This document shows, piece by piece, positions 23,459 through 27,332 of a DNA stretch of 64,000 nucleotides. The stretch is from Escherichia coli (GTDB lineage: Bacteria > Pseudomonadota > Gammaproteobacteria > Enterobacterales > Enterobacteriaceae). The DNA is taken from assembly GCF_036507355.1 (NCBI RefSeq), contig NZ_AP027877.1. The stretch is one strand, 5' to 3'. How positions within the stretch are numbered: position 1 is the first letter of the stretch; every line of letters begins with the position of its first letter. Both the position numbers and the translations under genes were made by a program. Under the pieces are notes generated by a model that was given only the letters and a program-made list of their open reading frames with translations, was not told where the DNA came from and did no database searches.

Positions 23459-23484
23459 TATTCCTTGTTGGTAATGACTCCAAC

Positions 23485-23988
23485 TTATTGATAGTGTTTT
23501 ATGTTCAGATAATGCCCGATGACTTTGTCATGCAGCTCCACCGATTTTGAGAACGACAGCGACTTCCGTCCCAGCCGTGCCAGGTGCTGCCTCAGATTCA
23601 GGTTATGCCGCTCAATTCGCTGCGTATATCGCTTGCTGATTACGTGCAGCTTTCCCTTCAGGCGGGATTCATACAGCGGCCAGCCATCCGTCATCCATAT
23701 CACCACGTCAAAGGGTGACAGCAGGCTCATAAGACGCCCCAGCGTCGCCATCGTGCGTTCACCGAATACGTGCGCAACAACCGTCTTCCGGAGCCTGTCA
23801 TACGCGTAAAACAGCCAGCGCTGGCGCGATTTAGCCCCGACATAGCCCCACTGTTCGTCCATTTCCGCGCAGACGATGACGTCACTGCCCGGCTGTATGC
23901 GCGAGGTTACCGACTGCGGCCTGAGTTTTTTAAGTGACGTAAAATCGTGTTGAGGCCAACGCCCATAATGCGGGCTGTTGCCCGGCAT
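23485..23988 (-). CDS. insB: IS1 InsB (transposase C-terminal part; fused to InsA by -1 frameshift)
   Basis: 167 aa, [16 protein letters not shown]...; overlaps insA around the A6C slippery site. Confidence 0.9.
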
Positions 23989-24182
23989 CCAACGCCATTC
24001 ATGGCCATATCAATGATTTTCTGGTGCGTACCGGGTTGAGAAGCGGTGTAAGTGAACTGCAGTTGCCATGTTTTACGGCAGTGAGAGCAGAGATAGCGCT
24101 GATGTCCGGCGGTGCTTTTGCCGTTACGCACCACCCCGTCAGTAGCTGAACAGGAGGGACAGCTGATAGAAACAGAAGCCAC
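23907..24182 (-). CDS. insA: IS1 InsA (transposition repressor / transposase N-terminal part)
   Basis: 91 aa, [40 protein letters not shown]... Confidence 0.9.
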
Positions 24183-24545
24183 TGGAGCACCTCAAAAACA
24201 CCATCATACACTAAATCAGTAAGTTGGCAGCATCACCTTCCTTGTTATACACATTACGAAAAATAAGACATTTAAGATCATCAAAAGAGGAAAGTAAATG
24301 TATTGCGTATAAAGGGATAGATTAAATTTATTAAAATTCACGCAGGGAATAATTTATAAAAATATATCATTACAACATATATATTAATTTTATGTTTATT
24401 TCGCAGCCAAACAGGATAAACATCAGTCAGGACAAAGACGTAAAATTTAAGATGAAAGAATATCTGCCGCTTTGATAATCCCAAAGAGCAAAAGCATCCG
24501 ACAGCGAAGTGCCGTTATGTTCTGTGAAAGTGGAGAAGGTAACCG

Positions 24546-24737
24546 CTAACGTTGTACCGGTGATTCGACGGAGAGTGTGGATTGCTGAGCTTCTTTTTTG
24601 CTCTGATGGTGCTGCCAGGCACCGACGGACGAGTAGATAAAACGGCCAAAGAAGAAGATAAAGCTGATGAGCAGTACGATACGGGTCATGCGACTGTTAA
24701 ATCGGTGTCGTTTTCGCATACTGGTTGCCTGACTCAC
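24546..24737 (-). CDS. yfgG: small membrane protein YfgG
   Basis: 63 aa with single hydrophobic helix (IVLLISFIFFFGRFIY); position between yfgH and pdeF. Confidence 0.6.
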   Translation of the reverse strand: MSQATSMRKRHRFNSRMTRIVLLISFIFFFGRFIYSSVGAWQHHQSKKEAQQSTLSVESPVQR

Positions 24738-24947
24738 AAAAGGTTCCTTGAAGTATGTCCCACGCTGTGGACGGTACTTACATTAAGGCACAACAGGACA
24801 AAATGGTCAATTCTTCGTTATGTAAAAAAGCGTCAGTGGATACATATTTTAATGTTATGGAAGTTAATTTAATTATTTACAATGATGATGTAATAATGAT
24901 GAATTAACATGATAAACGTAATAATTCATTAATCAGGGTTATTTTGT

Positions 24948-24961
24948 TTGATATATATCAA
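24948..24961 (+). promoter_or_regulatory. FNR binding site (perfect consensus) in pdeF promoter
   Basis: TTGATATATATCAA = TTGAT-N4-ATCAA; candidate -10 TAGAAT at 24983-24988 places the site near -41.5 (class II). Confidence 0.7.
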
Positions 24962-25088
24962 TTGGAACTTTCATATGACACTTAGAATCAATGCTCTCTA
25001 TAGTGATGAATAATCATCATTCGAAGTCAGGTGGGATGCCTGTCTGAATACACCTCCTTCAGGATGTGGGGGATTCTGCTGAGCATCT

Positions 25089-27332
25089 ATGAAACTGAAT
25101 GCAACTTATATAAAAATACGTGATAAATGGTGGGGGCTTCCGCTGTTCCTGCCTTCTTTAATCTTGCCCATTTTCGCCCACATTAATACTTTCGCGCATA
25201 TTTCTTCCGGTGAGGTTTTTCTCTTTTATCTGCCTTTGGCACTGATGATCAGCATGATGATGTTTTTCAGCTGGGCGGCATTGCCAGGGATCGCCTTAGG
25301 GATTTTTGTCCGCAAATATGCAGAGCTTGGTTTTTACGAAACGCTCTCATTAACGGCTAATTTTATTATCATTATCATTCTCTGTTGGGGCGGTTACAGG
25401 GTCTTTACTCCCCGGCGTAACAACGTTTCACATGGTGATACCCGTTTAATTTCCCAGCGTATATTCTGGCAGATTGTGTTTCCTGCAACGCTGTTTCTGA
25501 TACTTTTCCAGTTTGCTGCGTTTGTAGGATTACTGGCGAGCAGAGAAAATCTGGTCGGCGTCATGCCTTTTAACCTCGGGACCTTAATCAATTATCAGGC
25601 CTTACTGGTGGGCAATCTGATTGGTGTCCCGCTGTGCTACTTCATCATTCGGGTAGTTCGAAATCCGTTTTATTTACGTAGTTATTATTCGCAATTAAAA
25701 CAGCAGGTTGATGTCAAAGTCACCAAAAAAGAGTTCGCACTCTGGCTACTGGCATTAGGTGCTTTACTGTTGCTGTTATGCATGCCGTTAAATGAAAAAA
25801 GCACAATTTTTAGCACCAATTATACCTTGTCATTATTGCTGCCCCTGATGATGTGGGGAGCGATGCGCTATGGTTATAAGCTGATTTCACTGCTCTGGGC
25901 GGTCATGTTGATGATCAGCATCCACAGCTATCAAAATTACATTCCCATTTATCCCGGCTATACCACGCAGCTGACCATAACCTCCTCCAGTTATCTGGTA
26001 TTCTCTTTTATTGTCAATTATATGGCTGTACTGGCAACCCGTCAGAGAACGGTAGTCAGACGCATTCAGCGGCTTGCGTATGTGGACCCGGTGGTTCATC
26101 TGCCAAATGTTCGCGCCCTGAATCGCGCGTTGCGTGATGCCCCCTGGTCTGCGCTTTGTTATTTACGCATCCCTGGCATGGAAATGCTGGTTAAAAACTA
26201 TGGCATCATGCTGCGGATTCAATACAAGCAAAAACTTTCTCACTGGCTGTCACCATTGCTGGAACCGGGTGAAGATGTTTATCAGCTTTCGGGTAACGAT
26301 CTCGCGCTGCGACTGAATACAGAATCGCACCAGGAGCGCATTACCGCACTGGATAGCCATCTCAAGCAATTTCGTTTCTTTTGGGATGGAATGCCGATGC
26401 AACCGCAGATTGGCGTCAGCTACTGCTATGTACGCTCGCCAGTGAATCATATCTACCTGCTGCTGGGAGAGCTAAATACGGTCGCCGAACTTTCCATCGT
26501 GACCAACGCCCCGGAAAATATGCAGCGTCGCGGGGCAATGTATTTGCAACGCGAATTGAAAGATAAAGTCGCGATGATGAATCGACTACAGCAGGCGCTG
26601 GAACACAACCATTTTTTCCTGATGGCCCAGCCGATTACCGGTATGCGTGGTGATGTTTACCATGAAATTCTTCTGCGCATGAAAGGTGAGAATGATGAAC
26701 TGATCAGCCCCGATAGCTTCTTGCCGGTCGCGCACGAATTTGGTTTATCGTCGAGTATCGACATGTGGGTCATTGAGCATACGCTGCAATTTATGGCTGA
26801 AAACAGAGCGAAGATGCCCGCTCACCGTTTTGCTATTAATCTGTCTCCAACCTCGGTATGTCAGGCTCGTTTTCCTGTTGAAGTCAGTCAGTTGCTGGCT
26901 AAATATCAGATTGAAGCGTGGCAACTTATTTTTGAAGTCACCGAAAGTAATGCTCTGACCAATGTTAAGCAGGCGCAAATCACCTTGCAGCATCTTCAGG
27001 AATTAGGCTGCCAGATTGCGATTGATGATTTCGGCACCGGCTACGCCAGCTATGCGCGGCTTAAAAATGTGAATGCCGATCTGCTTAAAATTGACGGCAG
27101 TTTTATCCGCAATATTGTGTCAAATAGTCTGGATTATCAGATAGTGGCATCGATTTGCCACCTGGCGCGAATGAAGAAAATGCGGGTAGTGGCAGAGTAC
27201 GTTGAAAACGAAGAGATCCGCGAGGCAGTGCTCTCTTTGGGGATCGATTATATGCAGGGTTATCTTATTGGTAAGCCGCAACCGTTAATTGATACGCTGA
27301 ATGAAATCGAACCCATTCGCGAAAGTGCCTGA
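25089..27332 (+). CDS. pdeF: c-di-GMP phosphodiesterase PdeF (MASE1 membrane domain, degenerate GGDEF, EAL)
   Basis: 747 aa; multi-TM N-terminus; EAL-domain motifs in C-terminal third. Confidence 0.85.
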   Translation: MKLNATYIKIRDKWWGLPLFLPSLILPIFAHINTFAHISSGEVFLFYLPLALMISMMMFFSWAALPGIALGIFVRKYAELGFYETLSLTANFIIIIILCWGGYRVFTPRRNNVSHGDTRLISQRIFWQIVFPATLFLILFQFAAFVGLLASRENLVGVMPFNLGTLINYQALLVGNLIGVPLCYFIIRVVRNPFYLRSYYSQLKQQVDVKVTKKEFALWLLALGALLLLLCMPLNEKSTIFSTNYTLSLLLPLMMWGAMRYGYKLISLLWAVMLMISIHSYQNYIPIYPGYTTQLTITSSSYLVFSFIVNYMAVLATRQRTVVRRIQRLAYVDPVVHLPNVRALNRALRDAPWSALCYLRIPGMEMLVKNYGIMLRIQYKQKLSHWLSPLLEPGEDVYQLSGNDLALRLNTESHQERITALDSHLKQFRFFWDGMPMQPQIGVSYCYVRSPVNHIYLLLGELNTVAELSIVTNAPENMQRRGAMYLQRELKDKVAMMNRLQQALEHNHFFLMAQPITGMRGDVYHEILLRMKGENDELISPDSFLPVAHEFGLSSSIDMWVIEHTLQFMAENRAKMPAHRFAINLSPTSVCQARFPVEVSQLLAKYQIEAWQLIFEVTESNALTNVKQAQITLQHLQELGCQIAIDDFGTGYASYARLKNVNADLLKIDGSFIRNIVSNSLDYQIVASICHLARMKKMRVVAEYVENEEIREAVLSLGIDYMQGYLIGKPQPLIDTLNEIEPIRESA

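Follow-up and report, generated by a model that had tools for sequence, protein, structure and literature searches.

The palindrome TTGATATATATCAA lies between two divergent genes of Escherichia coli, yfgG and pdeF (yfgF). The question raised by this locus is whether the palindrome is an operator for FNR and, if so, which promoter it serves and with what geometry. We analysed a stretch of 64,000 nt from E. coli (GCF_036507355.1, contig NZ_AP027877.1), called the window in the following, and all coordinates refer to positions in it. Overall, we regard TTGATATATATCAA as the FNR operator of a class II FNR-activated pdeF promoter, a reading to which we assign a probability of roughly 0.93. Through such a site, c-di-GMP turnover is tied to the sensing of oxygen by FNR, as are, in consequence, enterobacterial motility, surface properties and the peroxide stress response, and this link between FNR and c-di-GMP has been established since 2010. 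The architecture of the FNR-pdeF promoter is itself already known and published. Its recovery from the sequence alone can be taken as a positive control, given that the published architecture has experimental support.

Genetic context and the FNR box

The pdeF coding sequence extends over 25089-27332 on the plus strand and specifies a c-di-GMP phosphodiesterase of 747 amino acids, in which a MASE1 domain is followed by a degenerate GGDEF domain and an EAL domain. All matching E. coli genomes, K-12 (b2503) among them, annotate this reading frame as pdeF, and homologues carry the Pfam domains PF05231 (MASE1) and PF00563 (EAL). On the minus strand, the open reading frame at 24546-24737 corresponds to yfgG (63 amino acids) according to E. 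coli genome annotation, and the two divergent genes divide a common intergenic region of 351 bp. A further reading frame of 50 codons was seen at 24755-24907 (plus strand), between yfgG and the FNR box, in DNA of 20-40% G+C. It is listed in many E. coli genomes as ‘hypothetical protein’ WP_000017552.1 by the NCBI pipeline and is unannotated in K-12. No gene call was present at this position in the E. fergusonii or Citrobacter loci, and the frame is probably spurious.

The FNR binding site TTGATATATATCAA occupies 24948-24961, with its centre at 24954.5 and, as a palindrome, with no assigned strand. It agrees with the inverted repeat TTGAT-N4-ATCAA at 10 of 10 consensus positions. When the whole 64-kb window was searched for the exact pattern, this site was the single match (plus strand), compared to 0.05 matches expected by chance, the average over dinucleotide-preserving shuffles. 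A second FNR-like site with at most two mismatches was not found within the 400 bp upstream of pdeF in the window. The last base of the box lies 128 positions before the pdeF ATG at 25089. The first-pass annotation had described a perfect FNR box at 24948-24961, about 128 bp from the ATG; both points were confirmed, with exact half-sites that are unique in the window, and its numerical statements proved correct to within 1-2 bp.

Downstream of the box, the hexamer TAGAAT at 24983-24988 (plus strand) was identified as the -10 element of the pdeF promoter, as it is named in this role in PMC3718329 and its spacing is kept in orthologues. The same hexamer had been picked out before, at about 23 bp from the box. 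Here, the hexamer itself stands, and the gap has to be corrected to 21 intervening bases. Judging from this -10 element and the published box position of -41.5, transcription of pdeF in the window strain probably begins near 24996. A start at 24996 would put the box centre at -41.5 and leave an untranslated 5' leader of about 93 nt, extending over 24996-25088 on the plus strand.

No usable -35 hexamer was found: ATTGGA, AATTGG and CAATTG, which precede TAGAAT by 16, 17 and 18 bp, share 2, 0 and 0 of 6 positions with TTGACA, respectively. The -35 element is therefore weak or absent, as in class II FNR promoters. Taking the predicted start, the published position and the gap together, the box sits at about -41.5 and overlaps the -35 region. 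The archetypal class II promoter, nirB of K-12, with FNR at -41.5, shows the same arrangement. There, the 14-bp box TTGATTTACATCAA is followed by 21 bp and the -10 hexamer TAAGGT, a gap equal to that of pdeF. Like pdeF, nirB has no functional -35 element, and both boxes are perfect matches to the consensus. nirB is in addition co-regulated by NarL/NarP, IHF and Fis. The earlier placement of the pdeF box near -41.5, in class II geometry, is thus borne out by the 21-bp gap to the -10 element and by the published description of K-12.

From this arrangement, the following mechanism can be proposed. In the absence of oxygen, a [4Fe-4S] FNR dimer would bind the inverted repeat centred at -41.5. It would then stand in for the missing -35 element, recruiting and activating sigma-70 RNA polymerase via its activating regions, whose protein contacts are those drawn from class II FNR/CRP promoters in general. 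Transcription would begin near 24996, some 7 bp beyond TAGAAT, and the transcript would consist of the leader of about 93 nt and pdeF. The resulting product would be PdeF, acting as an anaerobic c-di-GMP phosphodiesterase.

Conservation of the promoter across genomes

Of 5426 complete E. coli genomes, 5403 carry an 86-bp segment comprising the box, the -10 element and the start, in one copy per chromosome and with at least 95% identity. A shorter segment of 36 bp, consisting of the box with 19 upstream and 3 downstream bases, is identical in 5360 of the 5426 genomes and always occurs as a single chromosomal copy. K-12 and the window are identical from 24825 to the ATG save for one spacer base at 24966, which is A in the window and T in K-12. 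K-12 yfgF thus has the same locus, FNR box, -10 hexamer TAGAAT, leader and start codon as the window. As the two promoters differ in this one spacer base only, published K-12 results carry over directly. The window strain would be expected to behave like K-12. The A/T polymorphism at 24966, in the spacer that separates the FNR box from the -10 element, is widespread, and the T is also found in USML2. It divides the complete E. coli genomes roughly into halves: 2691 share all 86 bp with the window and 2712 match at 95-99%.

The comparison was extended to 17 orthologous pdeF loci. These were taken from E. coli, E. whittamii, E. fergusonii, Salmonella enterica, Citrobacter rodentium, C. amalonaticus, C. 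pasteurii, Enterobacter asburiae, two Phytobacter, five Kluyvera and relatives, and one metagenomic relative, with PdeF protein identities down to 57-62%. In each of the 17 loci, the box deviates from the consensus at no more than one position, TA[G/A/C]AAT begins after a gap of exactly 21 bp, and the pdeF ATG follows the box centre at a distance of 124-150 bp. Both the spacer and the DNA upstream of the box vary freely in sequence among these orthologues. Since the box, the -10 element and the 21-bp spacing are kept while their surroundings diverge, the arrangement represents a genuine phylogenetic footprint. The invariance of box, spacer length and -10 element in Escherichia, Salmonella, Citrobacter, Enterobacter, Phytobacter and Kluyvera, together with the near fixation of the box in E. 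coli, is one of two modest additions that the present analysis makes to the published picture; the other is the presence of conserved elements in the leader, described below.

Published evidence for FNR control and alternative explanations

The start mapping and fnr-mutant data of Lacey et al. 2010 are considered here in the form in which PMC3718329, PMC3688515, PMC4207228, PMC5041473 and PMC5635695 report them. As quoted in PMC3718329, Lacey et al. describe the K-12 yfgF promoter as class II and FNR-dependent, with an FNR box at -41.5 and TAGAAT as the -10 element, and yfgF expression as FNR-activated and maximal under anaerobic conditions (Lacey, Partridge & Green 2010, Microbiology 156:2873). 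The anaerobic induction of yfgF is repeated in the corresponding statements of other papers citing Lacey 2010, and the RegulonDB curation paper, in its statement on yfgF, gives FNR as an activator under anaerobiosis.

In vivo occupancy by FNR is documented for K-12 in the literature. Myers et al. 2013 (PMC3688515) list a ChIP-seq/ChIP-chip peak for yfgF/yfgG (Table S5). The peak falls on this very 14-mer: their Table S6 gives the predicted site TTGATATATATCAA, the same sequence as in the window, with a PWM score of 16.08 and a ChIP-seq peak, and Table S9 names yfgF as the target, with one known transcription start from Lacey 2010. The class II activation of pdeF by FNR that the first-pass annotation had proposed is accordingly supported by K-12 literature, by ChIP peaks and by all 17 orthologues, with an output that depends on conditions.

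This condition dependence leads to the strongest of the alternatives, namely that FNR binds the site and the site is essentially silent, with nucleoid proteins or other factors dominating pdeF. Several published data are in line with it. Firstly, yfgF belongs to the FNR peaks for which no fnr-dependent expression change was recorded in the wild type, during exponential growth in glucose minimal medium (PMC3688515, Table S9). Secondly, the FNR peak is low in the wild type (0.35) and reaches 1.68 in an hns stpA mutant (Table S7). Thirdly, PdeF protein has been reported to be undetectable in aerobic LB cultures. However, yfgF does show a 4.3-fold anaerobic induction (aerobic/anaerobic ratio of 0.23), and this solely in the hns stpA mutant (Table S11), and FNR-dependent anaerobic expression is described by Lacey 2010 as cited above. 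Moreover, the box, the -10 element and their exact spacing are kept in six genera, which argues for selection on the activation geometry. A silent site is therefore improbable in our view. The published data rather indicate that the output of the pdeF promoter is condition-dependent and dampened by H-NS/StpA. A plausible substrate for H-NS/StpA is the very AT-rich tract directly upstream of the FNR box (24800-24947; 20-26% G+C; no strand assigned). As for the anaerobic induction of PdeF mentioned in the earlier annotation, the published FNR and anaerobic dependence agrees with it, and the missing fnr effect in the wild type in glucose minimal medium qualifies it.

A useful comparison is provided by yfiD (grcA). 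Its site TTGATTTAAATCAA has a PWM score of 17.25 versus 16.08 for pdeF, and both are among the top-scoring sites with a ChIP-seq peak. Nevertheless, yfiD is strongly fnr-responsive in minimal medium, whereas yfgF is not in the wild type (PMC3688515). Other proteins are also reported to occupy the yfgG-pdeF intergenic region: BasR, which binds in gel shift experiments and is described as a repressor (PMC12419081), PgrR, detected by genomic SELEX (PMC5934670), and sigma-S polymerase, detected by ChIP-seq (PMC4447067).

Because the intergenic region is shared, the FNR box could instead serve the divergent yfgG, alone or besides pdeF. The ChIP tables label the peak as yfgF/yfgG, and yfgG appears with a ratio of 0.45 in the table of aerobic versus anaerobic differential expression (PMC3688515, Table S12). 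However, the published start of yfgG (2627275 in old K-12 coordinates) lies about 37 nt upstream of its start codon (PMC4447067), and our conversion of coordinates places the box some 180 bp upstream of this start, far beyond class I or class II positions. Additionally, Myers et al. assign yfgF as the target (PMC3688515), and the conserved 21-bp spacing faces the -10 element on the pdeF side. Control of yfgG by this box thus seems slightly less probable still than a silent site.

The assignment of the -10 element was also challenged by a promoter scan, in which a sigma-70-like pair, ATGACA (24975-24980) and TATAGT (24999-25004) separated by 18 bp, matched the consensus at 10 of 12 positions and TAGAAT was not reported. 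Were this pair the real promoter, the box would lie near -56.5, implying off-register class I activation or no action of FNR at all. Class I FNR promoters use positions such as -61.5 and -71.5, and -56.5 is off that helix face. The scan, moreover, demands a -35 element, which class II promoters lack, and it gave 3 sites versus 2.7 expected, so that its hit carries no statistical weight. Neither TATAGT nor ATGACA is kept in the loci from outside Escherichia, while TAnAAT at 21 bp from the box is invariant, and the pair was rejected on this ground. In agreement with this, the literature, as quoted in PMC3718329, names TAGAAT and -41.5. We consider a promoter at this pair very improbable.

The weakest alternative, a chance palindrome or a CRP site, draws on the AT-rich surroundings (20-35% G+C around the box), which favour TA-rich palindromes, and on the occurrence of at least one exact match in 5 of 100 dinucleotide-preserving shuffles of the window, but it can in practice be regarded as refuted, both by the FNR ChIP peak seen in vivo and by the conservation across genera and in 5360 E. 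coli genomes, and the half-site is TTGAT instead of the TGTGA of CRP, this T-for-G difference being a known discriminator between FNR and CRP. Class II activation of pdeF by FNR consequently remains the preferred reading.

Conserved elements in the pdeF leader

In the comparison of orthologues, the leader downstream of the predicted start has diverged less than the promoter spacer. Two blocks, GTCAGGTGGGATGCCTGTCTG (25026-25046) and GAGCATCTATGA (25081-25092, covering the initiation region), are nearly invariant in all genera examined, and the initiation region GAGCAUCUAUGA is invariant across orthologues. Two hairpins can be drawn in the leader. Hairpin 1, CAGG[UGGGAUG]CCUG, is located at 25028-25042 within the first conserved block. 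Hairpin 2, CCUCC[UUCAGGAUGU]GGGGG, is located at 25053-25072; its sequence varies by genus, and its stem of a C-rich and a G-rich strand is kept. Both hairpins are retained across six enterobacterial genera, each with GGA in its loop, and the GGA of hairpin 2 is unpaired in the loop in 16 of 17 orthologues.

These features are reminiscent of the RNA-binding protein CsrA. The loop UUCAGGAUGU of hairpin 2 in E. coli contains CAGGAUG, which is the repeat element of CsrB and agrees with the CsrA SELEX consensus RUACARGGAUGU over most of its length (PMC7652899). The leader as a whole holds at least two GGA motifs, at least one of them in a hairpin loop, with resemblance to RUACARGGAUGU or CAGGA(U/A/C)G (PMC7652899). 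The leader hairpins may therefore represent candidate CsrA sites. On the other hand, no GGA overlaps the initiation region GAGCAUCUAUG, no CsrA site covers the Shine-Dalgarno sequence or the start codon, and neither demonstrated CsrA binding or regulation nor any other link between CsrA and pdeF was found in published full text or in CLIP-seq supplements. Nor does yfgF/pdeF appear in the supplementary CsrA CLIP-seq tables of PMC5694010, which derive from aerobic cultures. This absence is weak evidence because pdeF is not expressed in aerobic cultures.

When 24700-25300 was scanned against Rfam with a permissive cut-off, all matches were at chance level (E of 1.7 or more), far below gathering scores, and the conserved leader therefore belongs to no described RNA family. 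RNAalifold, applied to nine leaders, recovered only the CAGG/CCUG hairpin, which is invariant, plus a second, short stem. No covariation was seen, and for E. coli the predicted fold is no more stable than those of shuffled leaders (z = -0.25). A long-range helix that would mask the initiation region, formed by GGAUGC (25034-25039) and GCAUCU (25083-25088), was also considered. Although 7 of 12 orthologues are predicted to form it with P > 0.9, this helix is not favoured, owing to uncompensated changes in two orthologues, namely GCACCU in C. rodentium and GGAUAC in the metagenomic relative.

Taken together, the conserved elements of the pdeF leader are a lead and not a finding. They might reflect an unreported post-transcriptional control of pdeF by CsrA or another RNA-binding factor, on top of FNR, which we hold to be conceivable with a probability of about one in four, and hence rather unlikely. 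If true, such control would add a layer over the anaerobic c-di-GMP phosphodiesterase besides FNR.

IS1 insertions around the promoter

The window carries an IS1 element of 768 bp at 23470-24237, of which both terminal repeats are recognisable. The target sequence TTCCTTGTT is duplicated over 9 bp on its two sides (23461-23469 and 24238-24246). K-12 has no IS1 between yfgH and yfgG, unlike the window strain. Accordingly, the gap between these genes is 1087 bp in the window and 310 bp in K-12, and the difference of 777 bp corresponds to 768 + 9. The element ends 711 bp upstream of the FNR box, beyond yfgG. With this distance and with yfgG in between, the pdeF promoter is untouched by IS1, in agreement with the earlier remark that the element lies about 700 bp upstream, beyond yfgG, and leaves the promoter undisturbed.

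On its other side, only 11 bp separate the insertion from the start codon of yfgH (23458, minus strand), upstream of which it lies. The likely ribosome-binding site of yfgH, AAGGAA on the minus strand, falls inside the 9 duplicated bases, and yfgH is therefore severed from its native promoter.

A different IS1 insertion was observed in E. coli strain L73 (NZ_CP033378.1), where the element lies inside the pdeF promoter itself (positions 1549-2330 of the extracted locus L082), at a point that corresponds to 24973/24974 of the window. It parts the FNR box from the -10 hexamer. This insertion is possibly a natural knock-out of FNR control or, alternatively, could have created an IS-driven promoter.
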